A DNA stretch of 64,000 nt, taken from IMG/VR virus record IMGVR_UViG_3300027759_003844, positions 1-64,000 of that record. One strand, written 5' to 3'. Positions 1 to 16,624 of the stretch are shown in pieces. The stretch comes from a virus (taxonomy: Duplodnaviria; Caudoviricetes). The notes below the pieces were generated by a model. It worked only from the letters and a program-made list of their open reading frames with translations. It did not search any database and had not been told where the DNA came from. How positions within the stretch are numbered: the stretch's first letter is position 1; every line of letters begins with the position of its first letter. A program made the position numbers and the translations under genes.

Positions 1-68
1 ACTCTTGATAGGGATGCGTGGATGGGCTATGCAAATGACCTAGAAAAGGAAGTTGAGATGCTGAAACA

Positions 69-314
69 ATGAACGAAATAGGTTACGAAAAATTCATTGA
101 AAAGATTGTCAATCCTGTGTCTAAATGCGTAATGAATGACGACGCAGTAAATGCTGCAGAACTCATTGATATGTGGCGTGGTGTTGCCGTGACTCTCTAT
201 CATGCAATCCAGGAAGGCGCTGGAGGAGAAGGTATGGAGGCATACTGGTGGGGCGAAAGAGAAGAAACGCGAATTATCAATTCACAGAGTTACCAAGGGG
301 CAAAGCGTGATTAA
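69..314 (+). CDS. hypothetical phage protein
   Basis: 81-aa ORF in a tightly packed run of plus-strand ORFs; no recognisable motif. Confidence 0.6.
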   Translation: MNEIGYEKFIEKIVNPVSKCVMNDDAVNAAELIDMWRGVAVTLYHAIQEGAGGEGMEAYWWGEREETRIINSQSYQGAKRD

Positions 315-450
315 CACGGTACTACTTGCAATTATCACTGGAATGTTGATTGGCAAATGGATTGTTGAGCCGCTCATTGACATTTATCAAGAGCGTAAAG
401 ACTTAGCCACATTCGAGATGATGTGGGACAAGAATGACTGGCAGGACTAG
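307..450 (+). CDS. small membrane protein
   Basis: GTG start overlapping the upstream ORF end; hydrophobic N-terminus (VLLAIITGMLIGKWIV). Confidence 0.55.
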   Translation: MINTVLLAIITGMLIGKWIVEPLIDIYQERKDLATFEMMWDKNDWQD

Positions 451-537
451 AAGTGTCTGACGCTCGTCCGTGCCAATGCGTCTATCGTGGTCCTATTCCA
501 AGAAATCCGATGTGCGGAGAAAAGCCAGACGATTTCG

Positions 538-732
538 ATGAGTAGGCCAGAATCTCCAATGACCGTGTTGTCCATTCGTCTCCACGACGCAGAACTAGAC
601 CGCGATTACTTTAAGGGTGCTGCACGGGCTATGGCGTATGTTATGCTCGTCGACTCTGGAATAGAAAAGCCAACAGAAGAGCATGTTCTGGAATTCATAG
701 AAAAAGTAGGCGGAAGGCGCGATATCTGGTGA
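538..732 (+). CDS. hypothetical phage protein
   Basis: ATG at 538; stop overlaps the next GTG start. Confidence 0.55.
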   Translation: MSRPESPMTVLSIRLHDAELDRDYFKGAARAMAYVMLVDSGIEKPTEEHVLEFIEKVGGRRDIW

Positions 733-968
733 GCGAAGAAGTTCATATCTGTCCACATTGTGGTGCAAGCCTTAAGGGTGAATACATCGACCAGAATTTA
801 ATTGATGATGGTAAGTACGCAGATTTATGCAAGATTTGCGGAGACAAGAACCACTGGAGACTAGAGACAGCGCTTGTTGACAGCAGTACTGGAGAAACAG
901 TTGGAATGGTATGCAACTCGTGCCGAAAGGGCTGGGACTTCAAGATTGGTCTCTTCCAGCAATCATAA
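729..968 (+). CDS. zinc-finger protein
   Basis: CPHC, CKIC and CNSC motifs. Confidence 0.65.
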   Translation: MSEEVHICPHCGASLKGEYIDQNLIDDGKYADLCKICGDKNHWRLETALVDSSTGETVGMVCNSCRKGWDFKIGLFQQS

Positions 969-1011
969 TTAGAGATGGAATCCATCTAATCTAAAAATGT
1001 GATACAGAAAT

Positions 1012-1206
1012 TTGATTTTTCACTATTTGAGATGGTTTAATAAGTGGACTATGTTTATCTTCTTCGCCATCTCCACTGTACTAATTTTTGCTATCCATAA
1101 GAGCGTAATGAAATCTGTTGATAACTACAACTACGGGCATGGCTCACATGAAGAATGGCGTGAGTTTGAAAAGCAGTTTCAGTATGAGGATGCTTTTAAG
1201 TTCTAA
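1012..1206 (+). CDS. small membrane protein
   Basis: single hydrophobic segment; start uncertain. Confidence 0.5.
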   Translation: MIFHYLRWFNKWTMFIFFAISTVLIFAIHKSVMKSVDNYNYGHGSHEEWREFEKQFQYEDAFKF

Positions 1207-1514
1207 AGACCAAGCATTCCCAGTATCTGGGTCTTGCCTTTTGCTCCAACTTCTCTTTTAACCATCTTTCCATTAGAGAATAGGATAAGTGTAGGGATGC
1301 TCATAACGCTATATTTTTGAGCCAAATCTCCGTACTGGTCAATATCAACCTTTGCGATAACAACAGAATCTGAATGCTCAGCATCAATATCTTTTAGGAT
1401 TGGTGCAATTGCTTTGCATGGACCACACCATTCGGCCCAGAAATCAACAAGAACTGGAACTGGCGAGGTCTTTATAACAGTGTCAAAATCTTTATTGCTT
1501 AGATTTACAATCAC
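1203..1514 (-). CDS. trxA: thioredoxin
   Basis: VLVDFWAEWCGPCK active site and SIPTL cis-Pro motif; GTG start overlaps the ferredoxin stop. Confidence 0.95.
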   Translation of the reverse strand: MIVNLSNKDFDTVIKTSPVPVLVDFWAEWCGPCKAIAPILKDIDAEHSDSVVIAKVDIDQYGDLAQKYSVMSIPTLILFSNGKMVKREVGAKGKTQILGMLGL

Positions 1515-1762
1515 TATTCTACCTCGATGAATATGCATTCACCAGGGCACTCTTCGGCTGACTCAAGAACATCGTCAAGCCTATCGTCTGCGAAAGAAGC
1601 CATTCCAGCGGCTCCTTCTGGGTTCCCCACAGCGGCCGCATAAATCTTGTCGCCTTCTTTGACATACGCAAGACCGTCTGGCATCATATGAAACACATCT
1701 GGGGCTATCTCCGCGCATAGTCCATCTCCAGTACACAGGTCTTGGTCAATCCATACTCTCAT
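1514..1762 (-). CDS. fdx: single-cluster ferredoxin, actinobacterial type
   Basis: DQDLCTGDGLCAEIAPDVF...EECPGECI motif. Confidence 0.92.
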   Translation of the reverse strand: MRVWIDQDLCTGDGLCAEIAPDVFHMMPDGLAYVKEGDKIYAAAVGNPEGAAGMASFADDRLDDVLESAEECPGECIFIEVE

Positions 1763-2595
1763 TTTTTCCCTTTGGTGATTGGTCCACCTGTCAATACATC
1801 AACACCAGTTTCAGTGACCAACACGGTGTGTTCAAATTGCGCGGTGCGCTTGCCGTCTGCAGTGACTGCTGTCCAGCCGTCGTTCCACATGCGGTGCTGC
1901 CATGTGCCAAGTGAAATCATCGGCTCAATCGTGAATGTCATGCCAGGTCGCATTATTGTATTGTTGCTCTTGTCGTAGTAGTGCAGCACCTGAATATCGG
2001 TGTGGAACTGCTCGCCAATACCGTGACCAATAAAGGCGCGAATAACGCTCATTTGGTCTTGTTTTGCTCGGGTTTCAATGGCTTTTCCAATGTCACTTAG
2101 TGGGCGACCAGGAACAACGGCTTCAATGCCGCGCCATGTGCACTCTTCGGTTACAGAAATTAGGTTGCGGCTCTCGTCGTCAATCTCGCCTACCGCAAAT
2201 GTTGCATTGGTGTCGCCATGAACGCCATTCATGTATGTGGTGACATCAAGATTAATGATGTCACCGTCTTGCAACACGCGTGAATCGGGAATTCCATGAC
2301 AAATCACTTCGTTCACTGAAGTGCACACACTCTTTGGATAGCCCGAATAATTCAATGGGCTCGGGTATGCACCACGCTCAATGCACAAGTTATGCACATA
2401 CACATCAATTTCATCGGTGGTTATTCCTGGACGAACAAATTCTCCTGCAAGGCGTAGTACTTCGGCAGCAGCAGAACACGCAATGCGCATGCGTTCAATA
2501 ATTTCAGGGGACTTCACAGCAGATTCCTGCCAGCGCGTGACCTTGCCAGTCTCTGCGTACGGCGGCTTCACAATGTGGTCAGGAACGCTCAACAT
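1759..2595 (-). CDS. map: type I methionine aminopeptidase, probably N-terminally clipped
   Basis: SVCTSVNEVICHGIP, DGDIINLDVT, HGDT, GHGIG, TFTIEPM and AQFEHT motifs; higher GC than flanks. Confidence 0.95.
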   Translation of the reverse strand: MLSVPDHIVKPPYAETGKVTRWQESAVKSPEIIERMRIACSAAAEVLRLAGEFVRPGITTDEIDVYVHNLCIERGAYPSPLNYSGYPKSVCTSVNEVICHGIPDSRVLQDGDIINLDVTTYMNGVHGDTNATFAVGEIDDESRNLISVTEECTWRGIEAVVPGRPLSDIGKAIETRAKQDQMSVIRAFIGHGIGEQFHTDIQVLHYYDKSNNTIMRPGMTFTIEPMISLGTWQHRMWNDGWTAVTADGKRTAQFEHTVLVTETGVDVLTGGPITKGKK

Positions 2596-2621
2596 AAGTC
2601 TTGATCAATCCACACTCTCAT
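2589..2621 (-). pseudogene. 10-codon remnant of a ferredoxin start (MRVWIDQDLC*), possibly a translated leader ORF
   Basis: encodes the same 10 residues as the fdx N-terminus at 1762 (26/30 nt identical); its last codons overlap the map ATG. Confidence 0.85.
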
Positions 2622-2627
2622 ATAGGA

Positions 2628-2651
2628 AGTATACCATTTTTACGCTATAAT
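2628..2651. promoter_or_regulatory. divergent -10 elements for probable leaderless transcripts
   Basis: minus-strand TGgTATACT (2636-2628) 6 nt before ATG 2621; plus-strand TATAAT (2646-2651) 6 nt before ATG 2658. Confidence 0.6.
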
Positions 2652-2657
2652 GGGAAC

Positions 2658-2831
2658 ATGCCACAGTACAACTATCGCTGCTCTAACGGACATACTCATG
2701 AAGAAGTACGATCTATTCTGGAAGACCAGAAACAAAAATATTGCCCCGAATGCAACGCAGAGCTAAAACAATCATATACCCCGCCAGGAATCCAATTTCA
2801 TGGACATGGCTTCTACCGTAACTCTAAATAA
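2658..2831 (+). CDS. FmdB-family zinc-ribbon protein
   Basis: MPQYNYRC..GH...CPEC...FHGHGFY pattern. Confidence 0.85.
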   Translation: MPQYNYRCSNGHTHEEVRSILEDQKQKYCPECNAELKQSYTPPGIQFHGHGFYRNSK

Positions 2832-2868
2832 TTCTAATACAATAAGTTGTGTATGATATAATGCTTAA

Positions 2869-2994
2869 GCGCACTCGTGGTGCTGCCGATCCTGTTTGTT
2901 CCCGCAAACACGGCAGTATGAGTTTCGCTATCTTAGGACCGTTATAGTTAACATCCAAGAGGAAAAGAGACCACTCCGCCGAGTGGTCTTTTTT
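2869..2994 (+). ncRNA. putative structured small RNA
   Basis: extended -10 TGaTATAAT at 2854-2862; nested stems GTGCTGCCG/CGGCAGTAT and TGTTTG/CAAACA; second hairpin; intrinsic terminator; no ORF. Confidence 0.55.
2963..2994 (+). terminator. intrinsic terminator
   Basis: AGAGACCACTC-CGCC-GAGTGGTCTTT followed by a T-run. Confidence 0.85.
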
Positions 2995-3126
2995 CTATTC
3001 TAACCCCAATTCCAGCCCTCCTCCCGAACTTTAAACCAGCCAACGCCCGAACACCGCCCAAACTCGTTTTTTTACAAAATTGAGTACATAAAAAAGATGT
3101 GTTATGCATGCATATTTGTAGGGGGG

Positions 3127-3140
3127 CGAACCTATGTTCG
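3127..3140. promoter_or_regulatory. LexA (SOS/Cheo) box
   Basis: CGAAC-CTAT-GTTCG matches the Gram-positive/actinobacterial CGAAC-N4-GTTCG consensus. Confidence 0.65.
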
Positions 3141-3208
3141 GTAGGGTCAAACCTAAGTTACTCACGGGTAAGTCAAGTTACCCAACAGTAGGTTGGTGAT
3201 ATATTACC

Positions 3209-3231
3209 AAACCCTTATGATATAAGGGTTT
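3209..3231. promoter_or_regulatory. palindromic operator-like site, copy 1
   Basis: AAACCCTTAT-GAT-ATAAGGGTTT perfect inverted repeat; recurs at 7166, degenerate at 8847 and 33457. Confidence 0.7.
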
Positions 3232-3337
3232 TATCCAAAAAATAGTTGTACGGGGGGCAAAAATCCGTAGTATCGTTGTATTCATAGGGGCAACCAAGCC
3301 ACTATCCCCCCCTAAGGGGGGCAACGGAAGGATACCA

Positions 3338-3760
3338 ATGAAAACGCTAGAGACAGTAAAGAAGGCAAACTTGGCAAGTGCCAAGAACCAATCCAAGCCA
3401 ATTCAGATAACACCGAAAATCCAAGCATGGTGGGCGAACCTAGAAAAAATCGCAACATCGGCAACCATTATCCCAACCGATCTACGCATTGCCACCCGAA
3501 CCAACGGGGCAACCCGTAGGGCATGGTGTGTAGCCAATCCAAAATCGGTAGTGATTGTCTCGGTCTCGGATATCGCTAACAAGGTTGGCAATCGCCCCGA
3601 AAATATCGTTAGGGCAAAACTAGACACCCTTACCAATGTCAAGGGCAACAACACTACGAAAAAAATCGGATATATCCGAGTGTTGGATAAATCAGTAGCC
3701 GATAGCAACCCAACCCACCCCGACACCGATAAGGTGTTCTGCTACAGAATTGCCAAGTAG
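3338..3760 (+). CDS. basic hypothetical protein, family A copy 1
   Basis: GGAAGG SD; shares KAN..SAK, RPE..V.A...TL, GY.R and KV..YR motifs with 4627-5040. Confidence 0.8.
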   Translation: MKTLETVKKANLASAKNQSKPIQITPKIQAWWANLEKIATSATIIPTDLRIATRTNGATRRAWCVANPKSVVIVSVSDIANKVGNRPENIVRAKLDTLTNVKGNNTTKKIGYIRVLDKSVADSNPTHPDTDKVFCYRIAK

Positions 3761-3879
3761 CCCCGAAAGGGGTGGGGGCAACCCCACCCCAAGGGGTCTC
3801 GGCAGGGTGTAGCCCTACCTTTACCGAAAATTTCACGCATACTCTTTACACAACAAAACAACAGAAAAGGAAAACCATT

Positions 3880-4080
3880 ATGAACACTGAAATTAGACCA
3901 AATATCCGAATGAAGGGAATGCCCGTAGCAATAGAACGGGTGGACAATATCCTAGTGATCTGGGTAGCCAGCCCAACGGGAGACAGTTCAGACAGTCACC
4001 TATTCCGTATGCCATGCGTGAACGAGGCACAAGCCGAGGTCATCATGGAGACATGGTTGAAGGTATGGGGGCTAGCATGA
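3880..4080 (+). CDS. hypothetical protein
   Basis: AAAAGGA SD before ATG 3880; ATGA overlap with the next gene. Confidence 0.75.
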   Translation: MNTEIRPNIRMKGMPVAIERVDNILVIWVASPTGDSSDSHLFRMPCVNEAQAEVIMETWLKVWGLA

Positions 4081-4220
4081 ATTGGTTCGGTATGTTCACG
4101 GTGCTACTAATCGTAGTGCTAGTGACTACGATTATCGCATACGAGATCGGCTACGATAAAGCGGTCAAGGATGTAACAATGTCCAAGACATGGCTAGACC
4201 TCAACAATAGAAAACGCTAG
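4077..4220 (+). CDS. small membrane protein
   Basis: ATGA-coupled start; one TM helix followed by GYDKA. Confidence 0.7.
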   Translation: MNWFGMFTVLLIVVLVTTIIAYEIGYDKAVKDVTMSKTWLDLNNRKR

Positions 4221-4237
4221 ATCGGTTGGTATCCGAG

Positions 4238-4270
4238 AAAAGTCCCCCGAGAAATCGGGGGCTTTTTTCT
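4238..4270 (+). terminator. intrinsic terminator
   Basis: CCCCCGA-GAAA-TCGGGGG followed by a T-run. Confidence 0.85.
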
Positions 4271-4575
4271 TTCCCAGAATATCTCTAAACTTACACAGAT
4301 GTAAACTTACAGGAAGGTGTAACCCTGCCCGCACCGTGTAAGTTTAGTGAATGTTTATGTAAAGCTTTATCTAAACTTACCAGCGTGTAAGTTTTGGCGG
4401 GCGGGTGTAGGCAGCATCGTTTCCCTCGCTTACACCCGTTGTACCGTTTATGGTACCTGTACCATTTGTAGTATGTGTGTGTAAGTTTACAAGCGTGTAC
4501 CTTTATCGGTACACAATGTAATTCTAAGTCGTGTAAGTTTACGCATGTACCCTTTATGAGACACATAAAAAATAT

Positions 4576-4610
4576 AAAAAAAGAGCGAGGCATTTCTGCC
4601 TCGCTCTCTC
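4576..4610 (-). terminator. intrinsic terminator
   Basis: GAGCGAGGCA-GAAA-TGCCTCGCTC plus T-run on the minus strand. Confidence 0.85.
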
Positions 4611-4626
4611 TTACTTACTTGCTGTA

Positions 4627-5040
4627 CTACTTACGGTATAGTACAACTTTGTAAGCGTCATCATTATTCATGTCGCTTGCTTCAGGCGTACCGTTCACGC
4701 ATAGACGCACATAGCCCACATTGACAAGCGACTTATCGTGCTTCTGCAAAGTTTGCATGATCGCAAGGACAGCCAATTCTGGGCGCATAACGCCTTTGTC
4801 ATTGAGCGTGACAGGCTTTGCACAAACTTTGCGCTGATCAACAACTACGCCAAACTTGACAGCGTGCGCACGCACGCTCAGTTTGTCTGTCATCTTTGGT
4901 GACGCTTGCGCCTTGTACATTTGCTCAGCAAATACTAAGTGATCAAATACTTGCTTCGTGCGAAGTTTGGCAGACTTCACATTTGCTTTGGCGATCTTTG
5001 CAATGAGCGCCTTTGCTTTCATCTTTGGACTAGTGGACAT
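4627..5040 (-). CDS. basic hypothetical protein, family A copy 2
   Basis: GAAAGG SD before ATG 5040; motif similarity to 3338-3760; own terminator. Confidence 0.8.
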   Translation of the reverse strand: MSTSPKMKAKALIAKIAKANVKSAKLRTKQVFDHLVFAEQMYKAQASPKMTDKLSVRAHAVKFGVVVDQRKVCAKPVTLNDKGVMRPELAVLAIMQTLQKHDKSLVNVGYVRLCVNGTPEASDMNNDDAYKVVLYRK

Positions 5041-5462
5041 GATGAGCCTTTCAGTTAGATGAGCGTTATTGCTCATGATGTAAGTATACACATACTTGAC
5101 CCAAAGCGGGCGCATTTGTTTGAGCCAATAAATGAGAATTATTCTCACTTATACCGTGTACCATAATCACCCCAAACTTACACGGGCACCCTGGTAGACT
5201 GGTCACACCACTGTGGATAGAGGCTTACAGGCGTGTAAGTTTAGTAGATTAGACTTTATGAGAGCCTAAACTTACACCATTTCGTGGGTGTAAGTCGGCT
5301 CCGCCAACCGACTTACACCCATGTAAGTTTACTGGCACTAATCTTTATGTTGAGTGTGTATTTTCTATGTAAGTTAACAGACATGTAAGTTTATGACAAT
5401 CTATTCAGTGGATAACTTACACAGGGTCTGGAATAGGGTCAAATTAGCCCGAAATCTAATGC

Positions 5463-5491
5463 TTGCAATTGGGTTGGGTATCGGGTAGGGT
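5463..5491 (+). promoter_or_regulatory. sigma70/SigA-type promoter
   Basis: TTGCAA-17 nt-TAGGGT upstream of 5541. Confidence 0.6.
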
Positions 5492-5540
5492 TGAGCGTAG
5501 CGAAACAAGTCGCACCTAAACGAAAGGCAAAACTTACACC

Positions 5541-5765
5541 ATGTCCTACCTAACCTGTAAGATTAGGAACAGAATAAATTACCGAGACAACTTGCCCCAT
5601 GAATTCATGTTCATTGGCACTAACTCTCACGAGGTACAGAACGGGTACACACTTACCCAAATCCATGCAACCTGTAAGTTTTGTGGTGTTCTGAACACTA
5701 CAACACAAATAGAAAATAGCGATCATTCATATTCACAAATACTAGGCGATACGGAAGGGTACTAA
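5541..5765 (+). CDS. hypothetical protein with CxxC
   Basis: GAAAGG SD; CKFC motif. Confidence 0.7.
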   Translation: MSYLTCKIRNRINYRDNLPHEFMFIGTNSHEVQNGYTLTQIHATCKFCGVLNTTTQIENSDHSYSQILGDTEGY

Positions 5766-5771
5766 ACTTAC

Positions 5772-6014
5772 ATGAACACATACGAGGTATCTTGGCAATT
5801 TGAGAAGGGTAATCAAGAATGGGCAGACAGTTTTCTCTACTACGCCGAAAATATAGAGGAATTAGGAAAACTATTACGCTCTATCAAAAATGACAAGGAT
5901 AGTGACGATCCTGACATGAGTGTAATTTTTGCACAAATCTGTGACGATGATCTAGACAATGCAGATGACCGAGACATTACAGACGAACTACCCGAAGATA
6001 TTCTTGCTGACTAA
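5772..6014 (+). CDS. highly acidic hypothetical protein
   Basis: GGAAGG SD; Asp/Glu-rich C-terminal half. Confidence 0.75.
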   Translation: MNTYEVSWQFEKGNQEWADSFLYYAENIEELGKLLRSIKNDKDSDDPDMSVIFAQICDDDLDNADDRDITDELPEDILAD

Positions 6015-6053
6015 AGTTACACAACCGCAAACTTACACGGAAAGGAGAAAAAT

Positions 6054-6158
6054 ATGGATATGACCTTGAATATTGACTTACAATTCATAATGGTTATTTG
6101 CTCCACAATTGTCGTGATTACTTTGATCACAACAAAGTTCAGAAAGCGTGGAGAGTAA
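6054..6158 (+). CDS. 34-aa membrane peptide
   Basis: GAAAGGAG SD; MDMTLNIDLQFIMVICSTIVVITLITTKFRKRGE; not in the ORF track. Confidence 0.65.
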   Translation: MDMTLNIDLQFIMVICSTIVVITLITTKFRKRGE

Positions 6159-6178
6159 AGTTACACAGCAGTAAGATT

Positions 6179-6210
6179 AGCCCGTGCGCCCTCCGCACGG
6201 GCTTTTCTTT
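6179..6210 (+). terminator. intrinsic terminator
   Basis: AGCCCGTGCG-loop-CGCACGGGCT plus T-run. Confidence 0.8.
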
Positions 6211-6515
6211 GTCACCCTAAACTTACACAGCTGTAATTTTACAGGCAGGTGTAAGGTTGCTTCTTTGCGAACCTTACACCTGTGTAAGTTTGCAGCAATG
6301 TAACTTTATGTTTAGTACATGTGTGTAACTTTACTGCTGTGTACTTTATGTAGACCCAAAAGTAACGCAAGTGTAAGTTGGGAAGCCTTTCGTGTAACTT
6401 ATCTAATTTGCTCAAGTTACCCACCAGTAAGGCAAATGTCATCACATTGTAACAATTGCCGTGATATATCTCATATGGGCTATGGGTTCTAGCGCATTGT
6501 TACAATTTGATTACC

Positions 6516-6544
6516 TTGTATTAGTATTTGGGTTCCGATATTGT
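6516..6544 (+). promoter_or_regulatory. putative promoter
   Basis: TTGTAT-17 nt-TATTGT upstream of 6591. Confidence 0.45.
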
Positions 6545-6590
6545 TTCTCTTATCAAGCAATAACGCTTGGTACTAACGGAAGGTAATCCA

Positions 6591-6869
6591 ATGGCAGATT
6601 ATGAATTCATCAACGAAGACGACATGGAATTCGTTCCTCGTGGTCGTAAGTCAAATGTTTCACCTGAATTGGTCAATGCGATCAAGACAATGCCTAAAGG
6701 CAAGGCTTGCAAATTGACTGGCATGAAGGTGGACATCAAGAAGGCAAATGCCAAGACCGAGAAGGCACGCATCAGCGCAACGATCCGACAGGCAAGCAAG
6801 CAAGCGGGAACGCCAGTCGTAATCCGTTGGTCGGCAGACGGTACGCCACAGGTAATCAAGAAGGCGTAA
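6591..6869 (+). CDS. small basic putative DNA-binding protein, family B (RGRKS) copy 1
   Basis: GGAAGGT SD; about 78% aa identity to 7286-7561. Confidence 0.85.
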   Translation: MADYEFINEDDMEFVPRGRKSNVSPELVNAIKTMPKGKACKLTGMKVDIKKANAKTEKARISATIRQASKQAGTPVVIRWSADGTPQVIKKA

Positions 6870-7165
6870 CTTACACGCCTGTAAGTTCTTGGTCGGCTTA
6901 CAGGCAAGTAAGTTTGGTAAGGCTCGTGACCCCCCCTGGTCACGGGCTTTACTATTCTTACGCTCATGTAAGTTTACACGCCTGTAAGCTTACGGGCGGG
7001 TGTAAGTTAAGTCTTTGGTTAACTTACACCCGCTGTAAGATTACACACCTGATCTAAATGTTTAGTGTAAGTTTACAGGGTAAGTCTTTATGAGAGCCCC
7101 CGTGTAAGTTTTCAAAATGAGCGTGTAAGTTATCAAAACTGAGATATATCACCAAACTATTCACC

Positions 7166-7188
7166 AAACCCTTATCCCATAAGGGTTT
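7166..7188. promoter_or_regulatory. palindromic operator-like site, copy 2
   Basis: AAACCCTTAT-CCC-ATAAGGGTTT with flanks identical to the 3209 copy. Confidence 0.7.
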
Positions 7189-7285
7189 TATCCCTTTATG
7201 AGTTGCCCGATCTAATGCAAATGCGAGTAGATTGGTTGTTGTCAGGCAATCCCGTCTGACAGTAAAGTTACACGAAAGGCAAACC

Positions 7286-7561
7286 ATGTTTGAGTTCATT
7301 GAAGAAAGCGAGATGGAGTTTGTGCCCCGTGGGCGCAAGTCAAATGTCTCGCCCGAGTTGGTCAAAGCATTGACCAGTCTCAAAAAAGGACAGGCATGCA
7401 AACTTACAGGCATGAAAGTTGACCTGAAGTTGGCAAATGCGAAAACCGAAAAGGCTCGCATCTCGGCAACAATTCGCCAAGCGTCAAAGCAGGCAAAGGT
7501 TGCAATCGTCATCCGATGGTCAGGTGACGGAACACCACAGGTTGTCAAAAAGTCAGCCTGA
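7286..7561 (+). CDS. small basic putative DNA-binding protein, family B copy 2
   Basis: GAAAGG SD; MEFVPRGRKSNVSPELV...IRQASKQA..VIRWS shared with 6591. Confidence 0.85.
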   Translation: MFEFIEESEMEFVPRGRKSNVSPELVKALTSLKKGQACKLTGMKVDLKLANAKTEKARISATIRQASKQAKVAIVIRWSGDGTPQVVKKSA

Positions 7562-7583
7562 TAACTTACACCCCCGTAAGTTA

Positions 7584-7613
7584 GAGAGACCCCCGAAAGG
7601 GGGTCTCTTTTTT
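7584..7613 (+). terminator. intrinsic terminator
   Basis: GAGACCCCC-GAAA-GGGGGTCTC plus T-run. Confidence 0.9.
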
Positions 7614-7831
7614 GCGTCTGTTTCAAAACTTACACGGCTGCAAACTTACACAGCTGTAAGCTAGCGCACGGGTGTAATGTTACACTTATGTAACATTACA
7701 CCCGAGTAATCTTACACCACGCCTTTATCTAATTGAGTATCTAAATCTAAATGCTATTTCCAATCTTTATGTTGATACTATTTCTATATTTAATCTTTAT
7801 GTTCACCTTTATCCCAACCTTATTTTTAGAC

Positions 7832-7868
7832 AAAAAAATAGGGCTAGGTTTTACCCTAACCCTATTAT
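7832..7868 (-). terminator. intrinsic terminator
   Basis: AATAGGGTTAGG...CCTAGCCCTATT plus T-run on the minus strand. Confidence 0.7.
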
Positions 7869-7888
7869 AATTCGTAAAGGTTATTTAA

Positions 7889-8212
7889 TTATTTCTTCAA
7901 TGAGAAACGAATTGCTGGAATTGTTTCTTTATGCCAACGGATTTCAATTTTGTAACCCAAACGGCTACCCAAACCACGAAGCATTGCTGAAGTCTTTGCT
8001 TTGTAATTTTTGATATCCTTTTCGTTCTTCAATTCCGAAGGAATTGTCAATTCCTTAAGAACGAGGAATTTCTTTGTTTGAATCGCATTGTTATCCTTGA
8101 TCAATTTCTGAACATTTTGGACAAACAATTCGCTAAGATTAGACTTTCGCCCTCTTTTAACAAATTCCATATCCTCTTCATTAATAATATCAATTTGCAT
8201 TTCTTGTGCCAT
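7889..8212 (-). CDS. small basic putative DNA-binding protein, family B copy 3
   Basis: INEEDMEFVKRGRKSNLS...LGYKIEIRW; AT-rich coding. Confidence 0.85.
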   Translation of the reverse strand: MAQEMQIDIINEEDMEFVKRGRKSNLSELFVQNVQKLIKDNNAIQTKKFLVLKELTIPSELKNEKDIKNYKAKTSAMLRGLGSRLGYKIEIRWHKETIPAIRFSLKK

Positions 8213-8391
8213 TGTTTTACCTTTTCCTTTGTTAGTTGTTTTATCCAATATTTTACTGATTTCATAATTCCTTTACGAATTACCCAACCAGCATATCAGC
8301 GCAATTCCTAACTTCCAACCTTGTCTAAAAGAAATAAAATAAAGTTATAATCCCTCACCTAATTCTTTAGCCAATGTTTTAGTCAATACTC

Positions 8392-8425
8392 CCATGTAAG
8401 ATTACAGTTGTGTAATCTTACATGG
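8392..8425. repeat. perfect 15-bp inverted repeat of the lattice motif
   Basis: CCATGTAAGATTACA-GTTG-TGTAATCTTACATGG. Confidence 0.85.
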
Positions 8426-8978
8426 AGTGCGTATAAAAAAAGAGGTAAAGGTTTATCTAATCTTTTAGATAAACCAATACCTTTATGGGGATGCTTTATA
8501 CAACTAAATTTCTGGGGTGAATCCTGATTGTAATTTGTACAGATAGCTTCATCTATACCCTTACCCAACACCCTTACCTAATATGCCCCCGAATTCTATT
8601 ACAAATAGCCTGACAGAATCTATGACGAATTTGGGTCTATATAGCCATACTAAATTTATGATAAATATGACCACTAGTTGTTAGATAGATACAACCACAT
8701 ATATTTTTGGGGATTCAATTATTAATGTCTTCAGAAACCTTTATAGAGAGAGTGTATAGGTCTAAGTATCCTATATAAAACATCAATCCTAGGGAATATT
8801 GCATTTATTGGTCTTTTTATTGATTTTTACACTGATTTATGCAATAAAACCCTTATAATATAAGCTTTTCATCGTATTTTATGTGATTTATACCAATCTG
8901 TATATTACAATCTAGACCTTTACTAGAGTACTTAACACATGATTGCGGCTATAAATTCCTAGTGTTTGGGGTGTATTC

Positions 8979-9218
8979 CTATCTGTTAGCGAACCACCAA
9001 TCATCTTCAATTTCTTCTTCTGTTCTTATCTTTCCTTTAGGTAGTTCATCTACCTTAGTCTCTATCTTTTTCAGAGTGTGCAACAGTCTCTTTTCTCTGA
9101 GATAAACCTCTATAAGTTCTATCATAGTAACAAGTAGATATACCCCGCAAAATATCATGAAGTACGAGGCAACCATTTTTAGAAACAAATCCGTAGTCAT
9201 ACCCTTATTCTTTCTCAA
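8979..9218 (-). CDS. membrane protein
   Basis: TM segment; last gene of the minus-strand block. Confidence 0.65.
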   Translation of the reverse strand: MRKNKGMTTDLFLKMVASYFMIFCGVYLLVTMIELIEVYLREKRLLHTLKKIETKVDELPKGKIRTEEEIEDDWWFANR

Positions 9219-9468
9219 TCGTGAAGTGAACTCTATGTCCTAATGGATACTTTTCTGTAGATATCATATGATCTACAACCTCATCCAAAGCTAGTTCTTT
9301 CTTGCATTCCCTACAGAATACCAATACCCTTTCCCCCGCTTTTACTTCAGACAAAGGGAAATGCCCATACTCTCTCCACTCCTGATCCATTTCCTCATCA
9401 GAAATACAATAGCCATAAGTAACCTTATTCTCACTGGCACTCATGCCCATATCCCATCTCATTCTCAT
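9205..9468 (-). CDS. hypothetical protein
   Basis: CxxC..H motif; packed ORF, start uncertain. Confidence 0.6.
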   Translation of the reverse strand: MRMRWDMGMSASENKVTYGYCISDEEMDQEWREYGHFPLSEVKAGERVLVFCRECKKELALDEVVDHMISTEKYPLGHRVHFTIEKE

Positions 9469-9616
9469 CTAATAACATCTCACACTCATCACAAACATCA
9501 TAATAAAGCGTACCTGTTTCTATATCCTGAAGAGCCTTAATTCCCGCAATTTTTATGCGAACCATATGCACTGCATCAGCCTTATATTTAACATTATTCA
9601 TAGATTTGGTCTCCAA
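9431..9616 (-). CDS. hypothetical protein
   Basis: CDEC...GHEC motif. Confidence 0.6.
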   Translation of the reverse strand: METKSMNNVKYKADAVHMVRIKIAGIKALQDIETGTLYYDVCDECEMLLDENEMGYGHECQ

Positions 9617-9858
9617 TCAATCGTTTCATGAACATGCCCATACTCCTCATACAGATCCCTTTTATACTCTTCAACCAATTGCCTAAGATTATCTAAAATG
9701 CCATAGATTTTGTCAAAGTCTGGATGAGTGCGAATACTATCCTTAAACCTGGTTCGCTCCAAATCCTCCATAAAACCTTTGATCAAACCAATACCACTTT
9801 GCATTTCCTCTAAAGTAAGATCCATATATTCTCCATGCTTATCAATAGCCATAACCAT
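9598..9858 (-). CDS. hypothetical protein
   Basis: packed ORF. Confidence 0.6.
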   Translation of the reverse strand: MVMAIDKHGEYMDLTLEEMQSGIGLIKGFMEDLERTRFKDSIRTHPDFDKIYGILDNLRQLVEEYKRDLYEEYGHVHETIDWRPNL

Positions 9859-9994
9859 TCCTAATCCTTATCCCAATGCCGATGAATGTGTCTTTTATTT
9901 TCTCCACCATGTTTGTAATTATCTACACTTTTCTTTGTATGCCAATGAAGTCCAATATACAAACCCAAACACAATGCTAGTACGATTTTCGCCA

Positions 9995-10228
9995 CTATCT
10001 AACTCCTCTCCTATAATTTTGTCTTGCCCAATATAATTCCATTGTTAATAAACAAAGCTCTTTAGAAGCCTCTTCCTCGGTAGAAAACGAACGAATAAGT
10101 TGATGCTTATTGAAAGCAAAATATATCCTTATTTCCCAATTCCCGCTTGACTTATACTGCCTATGCAATTCATAACAGTACTGGTCAGTTTCAAGCCAAC
10201 TCTTCGGGAAACCTAATTCCTTATTCAT
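9995..10228 (-). CDS. hypothetical protein
   Basis: ATGA overlap with the upstream gene. Confidence 0.65.
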   Translation of the reverse strand: MNKELGFPKSWLETDQYCYELHRQYKSSGNWEIRIYFAFNKHQLIRSFSTEEEASKELCLLTMELYWARQNYRRGVR

Positions 10229-10539
10229 ATGTCTCTCGCAGGCGCTTTTTCATAATTCTCCTTTTCTATAATGCGATAAAACCCATAAAGAGCAATTGTT
10301 CTTTGATGAGCAGCGCAGCATAAATCCTTATTGTACTTACTTCTAATTGTATTACATTCAGTAAAACAACAAACGCCAGTATCAATTTTATCAGAATCAA
10401 ACCCAATCTCTGCAAGATACCTTTCGGTTCTATCAACCTTTTGTCTTCTTCTTTTTACATTGTATTCATCACGCAATTCAGGGTTTATTGATCTTGCGAG
10501 TTTTCTTCTTTCATAAGCTTTTTTATTATAACCTGGCAT
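10225..10539 (-). CDS. zinc-finger protein
   Basis: C...C....S.YNK...C..H motif shared with 36731-37042. Confidence 0.7.
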   Translation of the reverse strand: MPGYNKKAYERRKLARSINPELRDEYNVKRRRQKVDRTERYLAEIGFDSDKIDTGVCCFTECNTIRSKYNKDLCCAAHQRTIALYGFYRIIEKENYEKAPARDI

Positions 10540-10601
10540 TAATCCCTTCCTAAATTAAAGTCAAATATATTATATATATATCATTGTTATCCTAATGATA
10601 A

Positions 10602-11150
10602 TTACTGCTCAACATTAGGATAGTTAGTTCCAAAATATCTTTCTTCTTTATACGATCTAATGATGTCATCAGCAACTGTATCAATAGCAATTTTATTCAA
10701 TTTGAAAGATCCTCCTTCAATAGTAAACAATTTGCTATTAGCAATAGACAATAATTTTTGCCAATCTTCAGGATTTTGACCATCATGAATTCTTTGTGCA
10801 AAAGCAAGCATAGCCATACTTTCTTCTGTTCTATTCCAATTAGGAGTTGATTCCAAAACAATCTTTTCTACATCACTATCGTAAACTGGTTTACCTTCAA
10901 TTTCAGGAACATAATGCTCTTCATTAATAAGCCAACCAACTGCACATCTTGTTGTTTCACCACTCTTCATATTTATGCTAATGTAGGCGCATTCGTCACT
11001 CTGAAATTGTTGGTCATCATCATCATAATAAATATCTGTAGATTTAGCATTCTGTTTTAAAAGACCTCTAGCAATATGATGAAATGCTTGTCTATCACTT
11101 GTTATTGATTCTAAACTCTTTTCAAATGCAATTAGTGTTTCTGTTTCCAT
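10602..11150 (-). CDS. hypothetical protein, paralog of 14487-14879
   Basis: CAVGWLI...QRIHD motif; GGAGG SD. Confidence 0.75.
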   Translation of the reverse strand: METETLIAFEKSLESITSDRQAFHHIARGLLKQNAKSTDIYYDDDDQQFQSDECAYISINMKSGETTRCAVGWLINEEHYVPEIEGKPVYDSDVEKIVLESTPNWNRTEESMAMLAFAQRIHDGQNPEDWQKLLSIANSKLFTIEGGSFKLNKIAIDTVADDIIRSYKEERYFGTNYPNVEQ

Positions 11151-11208
11151 ATTAAAAGCCCTCCATTTGGGTCTGTAATCGTTTGTAATCGTTTATAAAG
11201 GTTAAATG

Positions 11209-11439
11209 CTATGCAGTTACTTCATTTGGGAAAATATAATAAGCAGTCTCTAATTCCTTGTCCATTGCAAAGAAAGAACCTGGTCCATTACCTTCTTCAT
11301 CTTGTGATGGATAGATAATTGAACCATCATCTAATACCAAACAAATAGAGTTATGTGGACTATATTCCCAACCCTCTTTTTCAATTACTTTTTTGCTTAA
11401 AGATCTTACATCTACAATTTTTCTTCCGATTACTTCCAT
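11209..11439 (-). CDS. hypothetical protein
   Basis: LDDG..IYPSQDEEGNGPG motif; coupled start/stop. Confidence 0.7.
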   Translation of the reverse strand: MEVIGRKIVDVRSLSKKVIEKEGWEYSPHNSICLVLDDGSIIYPSQDEEGNGPGSFFAMDKELETAYYIFPNEVTA

Positions 11440-11633
11440 TATGCATTCTCCTTTAGTTGTTCTTTATATTCTAAATCTATCCATTTCCAGTATTTATTTA
11501 ATTCATAAGTAGTAGCTTCAGATGAATCTATGCCGTTAGATATAGTGTGCTGAAATTTCAAAAGAATGTCTGCATAATCATCATCACACCCAATTGCATC
11601 TTTAACCATACCTCTCCAATAAGGATTACTCAT
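11439..11633 (-). CDS. hypothetical protein
   Basis: coupled ORF. Confidence 0.65.
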   Translation of the reverse strand: MSNPYWRGMVKDAIGCDDDYADILLKFQHTISNGIDSSEATTYELNKYWKWIDLEYKEQLKENA

Positions 11634-12256
11634 GACACTACCGCTTCTTTTTTAATGTAATAAGGCTTATTACTAAAATCAGCCAAACCAATTTCTTCAT
11701 TCAAGATTCTGGTCAATACATCTACTGCTGTAAGGTAATCAATACTTTTAAAGTCAATGCATAGATCTTCTTCATCCCATTCACGACCCTCTTCTTCAGC
11801 GTCATCCATTGACTCATAATCTTCCATTACCAATTGAGAATATCTCTCTGGCTCATGCTTCATTAGCCATTTCCAGATACAATTGCTGTCACCAAAGTAA
11901 ATGTTTCTACCCTCTTCATGTGTGAACCCCAAGAATTTGTTTGAATCAAATTCAAAGTTGTTAACCTGATTTGAATGATTATCTATTGATAACCACTTGG
12001 GCGCTTTCCAATCATTAGCAATTGCCGCAGCAAATCCTGCAATACAACCCATTGAAGTACAATTAAAAATATCTGTACCTTCTTCAACAAGATTAACTCT
12101 TGTTGCAGAATATTCACTAGCTGAATCCGTACCATTGAATACTCTTTCTTCATAATGATGTGCATCAAGTTTCCCAAGAAAAACATTCATATTGAACTTT
12201 TTTCTACCGTCAAACTTAATTGCGTCAATTACTCTTTGCAGATTTTCCTTATTCAT
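11630..12256 (-). CDS. hypothetical protein
   Basis: AAGGAG SD; CTSMGCIAGFA motif. Confidence 0.75.
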   Translation of the reverse strand: MNKENLQRVIDAIKFDGRKKFNMNVFLGKLDAHHYEERVFNGTDSASEYSATRVNLVEEGTDIFNCTSMGCIAGFAAAIANDWKAPKWLSIDNHSNQVNNFEFDSNKFLGFTHEEGRNIYFGDSNCIWKWLMKHEPERYSQLVMEDYESMDDAEEEGREWDEEDLCIDFKSIDYLTAVDVLTRILNEEIGLADFSNKPYYIKKEAVVS

Positions 12257-12395
12257 TTTAGCTCCTTGTAATTTCCGTTTGTTGTTTCTTTTAGGTTTGT
12301 ATAAATAATAACTTGACCTTCATTATCTTCATCAAAAGAACAATTAGGTAAAAGCTTTTCTATCTTTGACCGTAATTGATCTCCGTTTACTTTAC

Positions 12396-12635
12396 TCATT
12401 CTGTCCATCCATCATATTCAGATATAGTTTCTACAATTATGTCGTATATTAATCCCTGGTAGTGTTCAGTCATATCATCAAACTCTAATACAACCTTATT
12501 CCAGGCTTCTTCTTTTATTCTATTATCTTCGGGAGAGTCTTCAAATAACTCTTTACTCCACCAAGCAATACAAATTTCTTCATCCTGATCATTATAATCA
12601 GTGAGCATTTTAATTGCTTCTTTTACTGTTGTCAT
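12396..12635 (-). CDS. acidic hypothetical protein
   Basis: coupled ORF. Confidence 0.65.
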   Translation of the reverse strand: MTTVKEAIKMLTDYNDQDEEICIAWWSKELFEDSPEDNRIKEEAWNKVVLEFDDMTEHYQGLIYDIIVETISEYDGWTE

Positions 12636-12973
12636 ACTTGTTCCAATTTGAACGCATTGCTTTCACGCAATTGATCAAGAACTTTAACCCAATTATGGTT
12701 GTTATTGCGTACAAGATCTTCAAAGTCTTTTTCAAGTTTTTCTCCTAGTCCTAGTATTGTAAGTTCCTTGATGAATTCAAAGAACTCAGGTTTTTTTGTT
12801 TCAAAGTGAGAAATTTTACCTGTAACTGGATTTCTTACATAGATAAATTCCTCACCTCTACATGGAATCAATAGGCTATATGCACTATTAACTGTTGCCT
12901 GAATCAAAAGCTGAGCTTCTGTCTTAGCGTCTTTCTTAGCCTCAAATTTCTTAGGTACTTTACGAGTTGCCAT
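12632..12973 (-). CDS. hypothetical protein
   Basis: packed ORF. Confidence 0.7.
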   Translation of the reverse strand: MATRKVPKKFEAKKDAKTEAQLLIQATVNSAYSLLIPCRGEEFIYVRNPVTGKISHFETKKPEFFEFIKELTILGLGEKLEKDFEDLVRNNNHNWVKVLDQLRESNAFKLEQV

Positions 12974-12988
12974 ATATACTGCTTTCTG

Positions 12989-13195
12989 TTAGTCGGATTG
13001 TAATTCTACTTCTATACTTTGAACAAGGCTAGTTAATTCTTTTTCCTGCTTCTTTGTCAATTCAGGATAGTAAGAATCAAATAATTGTTCAAGCGCTTCA
13101 TTTTCTAAATCCTCTTCGTTTGTCGCACTTGACACCCAAGGATTTACATAGATTACACTGTAATCAAATACTATCTGTGCTGAATACATTGCCAT
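12989..13195 (-). CDS. hypothetical protein
   Basis: GGAGGAG SD. Confidence 0.65.
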   Translation of the reverse strand: MAMYSAQIVFDYSVIYVNPWVSSATNEEDLENEALEQLFDSYYPELTKKQEKELTSLVQSIEVELQSD

Positions 13196-13325
13196 TATTT
13201 AGACTCCTCCTTCTTTTTAAATTCTATATATGATTGAGTTCTATAATTAAAAAACTTCATATCTCCACACTTTTTACACTTATAATAACCTGGAGCTTGT
13301 GAACATTTCCATATATGTTTGTGAC

Positions 13326-13568
13326 TCATTTTCTGCTCCCATGCATTATTGCGTATGTTGTGCTTAATTGTGCATGAATCAATGCTTCAGTCAATGCTGG
13401 ATCTGTAATCGTTGGAATACATTTAGGATCAAACACAACTTGAGCCATAAGTTCTTTCGCATGATTAGCGTGAATAGTAGACAAATCTCTATATTCATGG
13501 TCTAATTCTAGTTTTCTTTCCCAAGAAATATTTACTTCATTATAACTAAACCTCTGTCTTTTTGTCAT
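13326..13568 (-). CDS. hypothetical protein
   Basis: packed ORF. Confidence 0.6.
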   Translation of the reverse strand: MTKRQRFSYNEVNISWERKLELDHEYRDLSTIHANHAKELMAQVVFDPKCIPTITDPALTEALIHAQLSTTYAIMHGSRK

Positions 13569-13809
13569 TATTAATACTCAATCTTTCTTGTAGTAGTTGT
13601 AACATTCTTGTATCTGTTGCCATGATCTTATCATTATCTAATTTCACCCATTCACCAGTACCCATATTGAAAACTGGGGTTGGATAAAACACTTCAACAT
13701 TTTCCATGTCTAAATCAAAATTAATTTTGTCATCTTTATCAAGCCATGCTTTTACAATAAAATGATGTTCTTTTCTATGGATATCTTCATGTTTAATGCT
13801 TCTCATCAT
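13546..13809 (-). CDS. hypothetical protein
   Basis: packed ORF. Confidence 0.6.
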   Translation of the reverse strand: MMRSIKHEDIHRKEHHFIVKAWLDKDDKINFDLDMENVEVFYPTPVFNMGTGEWVKLDNDKIMATDTRMLQLLQERLSINNDKKTEV

Positions 13810-14200
13810 TACTCAACCCCTGTTCTTTAAGGTATGTTTTAGCACTTTCAATTGATTCCCAGATATCATATCCAACTATATCTAAATGATCACCATTGCT
13901 ATCATAGATATCAAACCAAGGATTCATAATTATTCTTGAACCATTTTCTTCATCATAAATAGCATTTAATTCAGCATCAGTAGTGACACCCATATCTACT
14001 AATTGATTGCAATCATATATGCTTTCATCTTGAAAGATAATACGCATATCCCCATCACAATAAATAGTTACATAATCACCACCATTTAGACTTACATGAC
14101 ATATTGCGTTAGATGTAACTCCAGCACAAAAGAATTCTGGAGATGTTTGTTGTTCATTAAAGTTAAAACCATTCAGTAACTCAATCCCTGTTACATTCAT
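13793..14200 (-). CDS. acidic hypothetical protein
   Basis: coupled ORF; NPWFD motif. Confidence 0.7.
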   Translation of the reverse strand: MNVTGIELLNGFNFNEQQTSPEFFCAGVTSNAICHVSLNGGDYVTIYCDGDMRIIFQDESIYDCNQLVDMGVTTDAELNAIYDEENGSRIIMNPWFDIYDSNGDHLDIVGYDIWESIESAKTYLKEQGLSNDEKH

Positions 14201-16382: not shown

Positions 16383-16550
16383 CTTTATGATGCTCCTTTA
16401 TTTGTTCTAATATATACAAAAAGAGTTAGGCAAGAAACATTAGCAAAGAACAATGATACTCTCCGCTTGTAACATTTTCTATATGTTCCCACTAATAGAC
16501 AAATGCATATTTCTCTTAGACCGAAAGGTTGGTCTTAGCCTAACTCTTAG

Positions 16551-16624
16551 CGTATCCGATAGGAATTGAACCTATAACCTACAGATTAGAAGTCTGTTGC
16601 TCTATCCAATTGAGCTACGGATAC
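16551..16624 (-). tRNA. tRNA-Arg(TCT)
   Basis: GTATCCG acceptor stem, TAGCTCAATTGGATAGAGC D-arm, ACAGA-CTTCTAA-TCTGT anticodon arm, GGTTCAATTCC T-arm; no encoded CCA. Confidence 0.95.

Follow-up and report, generated by a model that had tools for sequence, protein, structure and literature searches.

A phased lattice of 12-bp near-palindromes accompanies a family of small basic proteins in a probable phage of freshwater Actinobacteria

Stoperators are sites spread over the whole genome of temperate phages, and the stoperator repressor combines a helix-turn-helix domain with a stoperator domain. Omega of pSM19035 is a small protein with a flexible N-terminal tail and a ribbon-helix-helix fold, which binds contiguous 7-base-pair (bp) direct or inverted repeats overlapping promoters, acts as a global repressor and has a ParA partner. 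In its early region, the Streptomyces phage phiC31 has terminators, numerous non-canonical promoters that are nearly identical to one another, and a conserved inverted repeat, present as a single 17-bp site per promoter and bound by the large repressor of this temperate phage. The PeSL elements of T4-type phages consist of host sigma-70 early promoters and a stem-loop, and are not known to have a dedicated binder or a phased palindrome lattice. The stoperators of Cluster A mycobacteriophages occur in many copies in intergenic DNA and beside start and stop codons, and are asymmetric sites bound by a two-domain monomer that acts at promoters and within transcription units, with specificities that diverge between relatives (PMC9283540); PeSL are described as repeated promoter and stem-loop composites that flank small variable early genes and mark their gain and loss (PMC4122927). 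Here, we analyze a block at positions 4285–8425 of the viral record IMGVR_UViG_3300027759_003844 that is filled with a short near-palindrome and contains three genes of an unannotated family of small basic proteins, named family B in a first-pass annotation of this DNA. The window comprises bases 1–64000 of the 109,177-bp record, which is rated complete. Stoperators, omega heptad arrays and phiC31 repeats are the closest systems in their presumed working, and none of them is a family match.

Like the stoperators, the block belongs to an actinobacterial phage and uses one short site that is repeated in gaps and at start and stop codons. The stoperator is asymmetric, whereas the unit of the block is a near-palindrome that occurs ten times as TGTAA-N2-TTACA and pairs ten times as TTACA-N4-TGTAA (0.02 expected for each). 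Stoperators are distributed genome-wide, whereas 32 of the 38 copies of AACTTACA in the genome fall within 4285–8425. In contrast to the stoperator repressor, the candidate binder is an apparently unrelated family of 92 amino acids (aa) with three copies in the block, and the PHROG scan of the window returned no integrase. These scans compared the called open reading frames (ORFs) of 1–59 kb with PHROGs, and 25 early-region ORFs together with the called ORFs of 59–109 kb with Pfam; no RNA polymerase, sigma factor, ParA or integrase was found among them. The period of 16 bp, the lack of ParA in the same scans and a protein model that does not appear to be ribbon-helix-helix distinguish the locus from omega, and phased multi-unit arrays with a small multi-copy protein distinguish it from phiC31. 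The layout of arrays and terminators resembles that of PeSL, with gene content that varies at module borders.

The words TTACA and TGTAA occur 77 times in 4285–8425, out of 432 copies in the record, in agreement with the estimate of about 70 half-sites in the first-pass annotation. In 1000 dinucleotide shuffles of 4285–8425, the same words were found 16.45 ± 3.80 times (maximum 29), and an order-3 Markov background predicts 5.1 copies of both words when trained on 1–4200 and 13.9 when trained on the record from 8.5 kb. The block contains 17 of the 22 matches to TTAC-N6-GTAA in the window, for which 1.23 are expected in the whole window. Each of the two palindromes has 11 copies genome-wide, ten in the block and one near 29950. 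Sites are concentrated in non-coding DNA, with 68 in 2275 bp (29.9 per kb) versus nine in 1866 coding bp (4.8 per kb).

The extended consensus is TGTAAACTTACAC, and the word reported previously, AAACTTACAC, is one half of a near-palindrome of 12–14 bp, (G)TGTAA-NN-TTACA(C); the weak half of many single sites retains TAA only. The basic DNA unit is the 12-bp near-palindrome TGTAA-NN-TTACA, and neighboring units lie 16 bp apart, which generates the TTACA-N4-TGTAA junctions. Same-strand copies at a distance of 16 bp occur seven and five times. The pairing rules and the 16-bp period proposed earlier are therefore borne out, and the chains named at 6965–7005, 7021–7046 and 7628–7660 are all present. 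By contrast, the supposed perfect 34-bp palindrome at 8392–8425 consists of two perfect 15-bp arms around a non-symmetric 4-bp center, GTTG. Copies of the motif are located between GAAAGG and ATG (5531–5540), bridge a stop codon and the next ATG (5763–5774), contain stop codons (6867–6877 and 7559–7573) and enter coding sequence (7401–7408), as had been claimed. The two stop codons included in this way belong to family B paralogs 1 and 2 (6867 and 7559), and single copies in + orientation precede the Shine-Dalgarno sequence or the ATG of four genes (5531, 5765, 6030 and 7268).

When the spacer between paralogs 1 and 2 is aligned over five genomes, invariant positions make up 47 of 88 (53%) in the cores and 62 of 328 (19%) elsewhere (Fisher p=5e-10), a contrast that anchoring of MAFFT on the repeats could inflate. 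The central two bases differ among relatives (AAACTTACA, AATATTACA, AAAATTACA and AAAGTTACA) while TTACA is retained, consistent with the variable spacer bases noticed in the first pass. The lattice is real and under selection, and its symmetry and fixed 16-bp phasing would fit a dimeric protein spreading along DNA. To this extent the earlier proposal of a polymerization platform for a dimeric protein is retained; its purpose is a different matter, as the promoter-like modules described below point to transcription control.

The arrays recur at every examined locus with a family B profile hit. Six viral contigs with close family B genes (60–96% identity) are syntenic with the block. Their 8–12-kb loci contain 104–128 TTACA/TGTAA half-sites, which are spaced by N2, N4 and 16 bp as in the block and form the same promoter-like composites. 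Distant loci were sought with sub-alignments of a 71-sequence family B alignment; a search of viral contigs with one of these, A6, found nothing. All 17 loci with a family B profile hit contain two to three paralogs in or beside arrays, so that the suggested co-occurrence of arrays with family B holds throughout this set. The top 8-mer has 22–77 copies at these loci, versus 5–11 in twelve 8-kb control windows of this genome. An array is absent from L113, a further locus with a weak tblastn match and no profile hit.

The array motif changes with the family B clade, being TGTAA..TTACA, TCTAAcgTTAGA, TTTAAcgTTAAA or CTAACA. Loci L102–L104, with family B proteins about 41–49% identical to those of this phage, use TCTAACGTTAGA, with 69–77 copies of AACGTTAG per 8.3 kb, and loci L110–L112, whose proteins are 31–33% identical to query group A6 (a value that does not refer to the proteins of this phage), use TTTAACGTTAAA, with 59–68 copies of AACGTTAA. 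L105, with proteins about 29–36% identical to those of this phage, combines CTAACA and CTAACCTAACA, with 141 CTAAC cores in 8.2 kb. The TTACA core is retained at L106, L107 and L109 (top 8-mer 22–25), where the paralogs of L106 and L107 are 29–53% identical to those of this phage and that of L109 is 44% identical to A6. L102 and L105, which were mapped in detail, share the layout of the block, with long inverted repeats ending in GGGTG..CACCC and CTTTATG beside the unit, and in L105 the unit follows a stop codon or abuts an ATG. In a comparison that covered L102, L104 and L105, and outside which the TTTAA loci L110–L112 stand, family B is the only block protein in common, except for a 67-aa protein shared with L105 alone.

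On a protein tree with three motif classes, two changes of motif are sufficient, which is the minimum; shuffled labels require a mean of 7.6, and none of 200 shuffles was as low. The paralogs of the TCTAA phages cluster together and not with their positional counterparts, as expected if every copy must read the same site. Residues of the long helix also differ by class (SATIRQ, SSQIRT, SASLRS and GNQIRS). Because relatives share labels and there are only about four to five classes, the parallel between motif and protein stays correlative. The general site can be written as T-N-TAA-NN-TTA-N-A, with the second base as the specificity position. Family B is the best candidate binder, given its presence with arrays at all 17 loci, a motif that follows its clade and its place as the sole block protein shared by L102, L104 and L105.

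The grouping as family B is itself sound: four paralogs share the motifs E-F-x-x-RGRKS and IRW, and a profile search of 1.84 billion representatives returned 86 clusters at E<=1e-3, nearly all of 70–150 aa. The three genes inside the block each lie in their own putative transcription unit. No match to family B was found in Pfam, PHROGs or NCBIfam, nor by tblastn against 50,697 GenBank phage records, and the best match in a sequence search against solved structures in the PDB had E=0.19. The ESM Atlas contains unnamed clusters only (best score 0.89), and BFVD one uncharacterized homologue that is 79% identical. The AlphaFold model, computed from the 71-sequence alignment (predicted local distance difference test score 84.8), is a single small domain preceded by an extended, flexible and basic N-terminal arm that bears RGRKS. 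The domain is formed by a helix (residues 25–33), a strand (39–41), a long helix (54–72) and a hairpin (76–90); no ribbon-helix-helix protein is present among the listed fold matches for this helix-strand-helix-hairpin order. The topology is compatible with a winged helix, a fold defined by three helices and a β-hairpin wing after them, and the structural matches, weak as they are, include the winged-helix DNA binders Stn1 (Z 5.3), RepE (Z 4.8), ScpA (Z 4.0) and Z-alpha (Z 4.0). Residues R17, G18 and R19 are nearly invariant. The conserved R-G-R-K/Q-S/A/P differs from the R-G-R-P core of the AT-hook, as proline is absent from the fourth position. Together, the array and these uncharacterized small basic proteins point to a new DNA-binding regulator with an array of putative binding sites.

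The block is organized as five short modules, each running from a terminator through an array (A to E) and small genes to a terminator, and terminator-like sites number 14 versus 4.4 expected. The composite TGTAA-N15/16-CTTTAT(G/C) is present seven times in the block, each time on the + strand; in arrays B, C and D, the genes that follow the composites lie on this strand too. In each composite, one motif unit takes the position expected of a −35 element. A search with GTAA-N14-18-CTTTAT(G/C) likewise returned seven copies in the block, all on the + strand, with just four loose matches elsewhere in the 109 kb, and 28 such composites occur across five genomes. In arrays B, C and D, an inverted repeat with arms of 13–15 bp, GGGTGTAAG..CTTACACCC, is located directly upstream of a composite, and its right arm forms a TTACA-N4-TGTAA palindrome with the TGTAA of the composite; array E has a repeat of the same type beside a CTTTATC copy, and array A an imperfect one further upstream. 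Three composites are followed by two same-strand copies of the TGTAAGTT type, one of which is TGTAACTT (5368/5384, 6372/6393 and 7103/7124). TGTAAG and TATGNN, read directly, fit the sigma-70 hexamers poorly. Because canonical sigma-70 promoters are not enriched, we infer that the composites act as promoters from their direction, position and conservation. A role of CTTTATG as a leader-peptide start was rejected, the ORFs that follow having 1–32 codons and no conservation, as were − strand promoters of the form CATAAAG-N10-TAAACT, which would fire into terminators and gene ends. Contigs from two RNA-library runs are 88–95% like the stretch and cover 4217–5396, 6967–7500 and 7831–8142 (X22, without cover at 8.8–10.4 kb) and 7254–7509 and 7938–8158 (X24); they stem from relatives, may include DNA, and give neither transcript starts nor expression levels.

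The units might be mainly RNA-polymerase elements without a dedicated binder; TGTAAGTT would then serve either as a −35-like box or, read as TG-TAAGTT, as an extended −10, and family B would be a mere neighbor. The Streptomyces phage Coruscant, whose terminase is 42% identical, offers a parallel: 11 copies of TGTAAGCT are present in its terminal 14 kb, on the gene strand and upstream of small genes, each of which has a conserved promoter of this kind with a palindrome upstream. In nine of the 11 copies, a cTTG −35-like box lies about 17–18 nt upstream together with a TGGCGCCnGGCGCCA-type palindrome, and TGTAAGCT acts as an extended −10. TAANNT, on both strands of the unit, also fits the actinobacterial −10 pattern TANNNT. 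Unlike the block, however, Coruscant has a single palindrome (TGGCGCCnGGCGCCA) at each promoter together with a clear −35 box, and it lacks family B by tblastn of the 50,697 phage records, whereas none of the 28 composites has a −35-like box 17 nt upstream of TGTAAG. About 60 of the 77 half-sites fall outside composites, units occur in both orientations, and the sole conserved host site examined has a canonical TTGACA box. The second base of the unit follows the family B clade, which a single host polymerase would hardly explain, and we regard a pure polymerase role as quite improbable. In the same terminal region of Coruscant (bases 1–14000, L108), Lsr2-like and ParB-N genes are also found.

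With moderate confidence, we favor a reading of the units as operators: family B dimers would spread on them and thereby switch the transcription of the block. Binding, dimerization, promoter activity and the direction of control are all inferred. Transcription control is the better-supported role because the motif lies within directional composites and within promoter-gene-terminator modules. The view is built on the observed enrichment, spacing and conservation, on the joint presence of arrays and family B, and on a motif that changes in parallel with the protein clade. The stretch would be the regulatory DNA of five short transcription units of small genes, each with its own terminator. Family B dimers would bind the 12-bp units through the small helix-strand-helix-hairpin domain and the N-terminal RGRKS arm, and spread cooperatively along the 16-bp-phased sites. 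In each promoter-like composite, the dimers would occupy the −35 position together with the flanks and the part transcribed first, so that the whole block, including family B's own three genes, would be switched, most likely as a self-limiting shut-off after a first burst.

Several observations weigh against such an operator role. Fold searches are weak (best Foldseek E=0.15, best Z=5.7), and family B paralog 4 is encoded beside the terminase gene, where no array is present. A sigma-70 scan found 13 sites versus 15.0±4.0 in shuffles, none of them at the seven composites, and the composite groups at 4480–4558 and 7723–7813 point at the 3' ends of − strand genes. A plain operator model does not account for the single + copies that adjoin Shine-Dalgarno sequences, start codons and stop codons. 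Finally, the parallel between motif and clade could reflect shared descent of the whole region rather than direct recognition.

The block opens behind a terminator that closes the upstream unit (4244–4270, +). Array A (4285–4560, +) contains the composites TGTAAG..CTTTATC (4480–4507) and TGTAAG..CTTTATG (4532–4558) and the imperfect long inverted repeat (4402–4441), and is separated by a two-way terminator hairpin (4577–4612) from a 137-aa gene (4627–5040, −), which is weakly like the 140-aa gene at 3338–3760 (E=0.006) and is present among relatives only in L009 and L010. In array B (5080–5425, +), composites at 5234–5260 and 5322–5349 accompany the long inverted repeat GGGTGTAAGTCGG..CCGACTTACACCC (5285–5321) and same-strand TGTAAGTT copies at 5368 and 5384. 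Three small + strand genes follow, each with a (T)AAACTTACA(C) copy ahead of it: a 74-aa gene (5541–5765; copy at 5531), an acidic 80-aa gene (5772–6014; 5765) and a hydrophobic 34-aa gene (6054–6158; 6030), closed by a terminator (6179–6203, +). Array C (6217–6435, +), with composites at 6283–6310 and 6324–6350, a long inverted repeat at 6250–6282 and downstream copies of TGTAAGTT (6372) and TGTAACTT (6393), precedes family B paralog 1 (92 aa; 6591–6869, +). Array D (6868–7131, +) begins with a site pair at the stop codon (6868–6887) and continues through a hairpin (6922–6947), a chain (6958–7046) with a long inverted repeat (6995–7032), a composite (7066–7092) and downstream TGTAAGTT copies (7103 and 7124); family B paralog 2 (91 aa; 7286–7561, +) has TAAAGTTACAC-GAAAGG ahead at 7265–7281. 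Array E (7563–7720, +) comprises a stop-codon site pair (7563–7582), a terminator (7586–7613) and a chain (7627–7720) with a long inverted repeat (7671–7705). Beyond it lie clustered CTTTAT(G/C) copies (7723, 7765, 7795 and 7807), a − strand terminator (7837–7866) and family B paralog 3 (107 aa; 7889–8212, −), which is convergent with paralogs 1 and 2. In L010, CTTTAT(C/G) recurs every 11–12 bp at 7137–7250. The double unit TGTAAGATTACA-N4-TGTAATCTTACA (8392–8425), with its 15-bp arms and 4-bp center, lies about 180 bp upstream of paralog 3.

Upstream of the block, an outlying TTAC-N6-GTAA site (3158–3171, +) and the inverted repeat CCAAACCCTTAT..ATAAGGGTTTTATCC (3207–3236, +), which recurs at 7164–7193, are located 5' of the 140-aa gene. 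In the form AACCCTTAT-N3-5-ATAAGGGTT, this second conserved type of inverted repeat is found at 3207–3236, 7164–7193 and 8848–8864, is retained in relatives, and precedes the 140-aa gene and family B paralog 2, in putative leaders. Downstream, 530 bp without genes (8430–8960) are retained in relatives and have no Rfam match; an Rfam search of 1–12000 gave sub-threshold, chance-level matches only. The + strand words AATACCTTTATGGGG (8476–8490) and CTTTATAGAGAGAG (near 8741) face the − strand gene block. The sole full units outside the block (29949–29972, −) lie in a 390-bp intergenic gap with CTTTATC about 35 nt downstream on the − strand. A palindrome of a third type, TTATCTAA..TTAGATAA, occurs at 8453–8472 and 29991–30010, beside the double unit at 8392 and these outlying units. 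Family B paralog 4 (123 aa; 31041–31409, −), the most divergent, is encoded two genes downstream of the large terminase subunit without an adjoining array, and has a long basic tail.

This modular anatomy raises the question of whether the repeats are maintained mainly as recombination cassettes through which small early genes are shuffled, in the manner of the T4-type PeSL. Gene content of the relatives does vary at module borders (the 137-aa gene is present in two of six relatives and the 34-aa gene in one of six), L013 and L014 carry two copies of the 140-aa gene, and a methionine aminopeptidase (MetAP) gene upstream of the block is absent from relatives L009–L014. A variant RNA-library contig has 7-bp indels inside array A, and DNA contigs break at arrays. 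Recombination, however, needs sequence likeness only, which leaves the spacings of 2, 4 and 16 bp, the palindromy, the conserved cores and the motif switching unexplained. Shuffling is compatible with family B operators as a side effect, and is very doubtful as the chief reason for the lattice.

The phage genome is about 108 kb with a circular map. The record ends overlap imperfectly (1524–1997 versus 108704–109177, 86.5% identity) over the ferredoxin gene and the end of the MetAP gene, and a thioredoxin gene lies before the left copy, an SNase-like nuclease gene before the right one. The overlap has the look of two variants from different strains that the assembler joined on a circular map. 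In a related record of 108,687 bp, the right end of this record directly abuts its left end, so the map is circular and base 1 is an assembly end rather than a physical end. The PHROG and Pfam scans revealed an actinophage-type gene set, with a WhiB-like regulator (23547–23834, −), a DnaE-type polymerase (41420–44815), the large terminase subunit (31694–33433), primase, helicase, portal and capsid genes, and a tail tape-measure-like protein of 2871 aa; a ParB-like protein is encoded at 22446–23360. The sole ARAGORN match in the whole window is a tRNA-Arg(TCT) (16550–16624, −). A tryptophan-halogenase-family gene, 2OG-Fe(II) oxygenases and a TauD-family dioxygenase are found at 81915–83543, 84779–85393 and 103185–103976 of the record, and sulfotransferase-like and FkbM-methyltransferase-like genes are also present on the phage. 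A DNA search of the stretch against the 50,697 GenBank phages gave no match; judged by the large terminase, the closest cultured relatives are Streptomyces phages of 120–134 kb, at 41–42% identity, which carry long terminal repeats.

These relatives lend some weight to an architectural platform, coated by family B or another protein, that would serve packaging or terminal-repeat recognition, DNA entry, iteron-like replication or tethering. Near-identical contigs of DNA run X1 have a depth of 10–11.7 over 3086–8564, compared with 5.4 (2567–2967) and 4.5–6 (8612–11514) in the flanks, and this roughly two-fold step is what a terminal repeat would give, although co-occurring strains that share the region could also produce it. 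Both depth edges fall in non-coding gaps of about 500 bp, and the deeper stretch may be a terminal repeat of about 5.5 kb or sequence common to several strains. Paralog 4 adjoins the terminase gene, and RepE is among the weak fold matches. Iteron origins consist of 17–22-bp direct repeats, a two-domain Rep and an AT-rich unwinding element. The block has direct spacings of 16, 18 and 21 bp and an AT-rich CTTTAT cluster at 7723–7813, and the family B model has a single small domain. This cluster, which separates the last array from the convergent terminator, contains CTTTATC copies along with TTATCC words that resemble DnaA boxes. The motif, however, is tied to directional promoter-like composites and terminators in every module, and the block sits where transcription converges, which is unusual for an origin; the record ends are assembly ends, joined in the 108,687-bp relative. 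The absence of a ParA-type ATPase from the scans of the record also argues against the centromere-like tethering suggested in the first pass. We consider an architectural role of this kind unlikely.

The probable host is an acIV Ilumatobacteraceae bacterium. The phage MetAP (1762–2595) is 94–96% identical to MetAPs of ten freshwater metagenome-assembled genomes, whose titles are mostly Ilumatobacteraceae, Acidimicrobiaceae, Acidimicrobium or acIV, and 88% identical to the copy on a 2.0-Mb Ilumatobacteraceae contig; because of these identities, the previous guess of an Acidimicrobiia host is well founded. The gene, which appears to be a recent acquisition from the host, forms a − strand trio with thioredoxin and ferredoxin genes (1206–2595), over which DNA depth reaches 4–10 times the level found elsewhere on the phage, an effect that host reads would have.

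With candidate hosts at hand, arrays that act as decoys for a host regulator, or for a host nuclease with a two-part site, can be weighed. Density is high, the region resembles an early host-takeover block, and a conserved host site, TTACAATGCTGTAA, lies beside a TTGACA box in four of five candidate host genomes. This intergenic site (G001 L100, 1490–1520), which has no Rfam match and no Rfam family downstream, is the same single TTACA-N4-TGTAA of the host in all four genomes. In contrast, TGTAANNTTACA has no copies in the five Ilumatobacteraceae genomes (1.5–3.5 Mb each), and TTACA-N4-TGTAA occurs at most once per genome, the frequency of control patterns; with the motif lacking, neither a host regulon nor the host-factor sponge proposed in the first pass is supported. 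The motif also varies among related phages in step with a phage protein. A decoy function strikes us as extremely improbable, and family B operators remain the reading we prefer.

A more far-reaching version, which is speculative and in its full extent improbable, is that family B comprises new small phage DNA binders that polymerize on T-N-TAA-NN-TTA-N-A and coat all non-coding DNA of a host-takeover block, maybe within a terminal repeat, as a timed silencer or insulator; a rapidly switching specificity, with G, C or T at the second base, would block cross-regulation by co-infecting relatives. If true, this would amount to an immunity-like code in lytic phages of uncultured freshwater Actinobacteria. 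To our knowledge, gene regulation has not been described for phages of the abundant, uncultured freshwater acIV Actinobacteria. The locus would combine an unannotated family, an unusually dense and phased lattice of putative operators, and natural specificity classes. The 92-aa family and the 12-bp site form a testable pair, with natural specificity variants that lie one half-site base apart, a set suited to working out a new DNA-recognition rule. The pair could yield orthogonal repressor-operator parts, and dense arrays together with family B provide a signature for the early blocks of related metagenomic phages.

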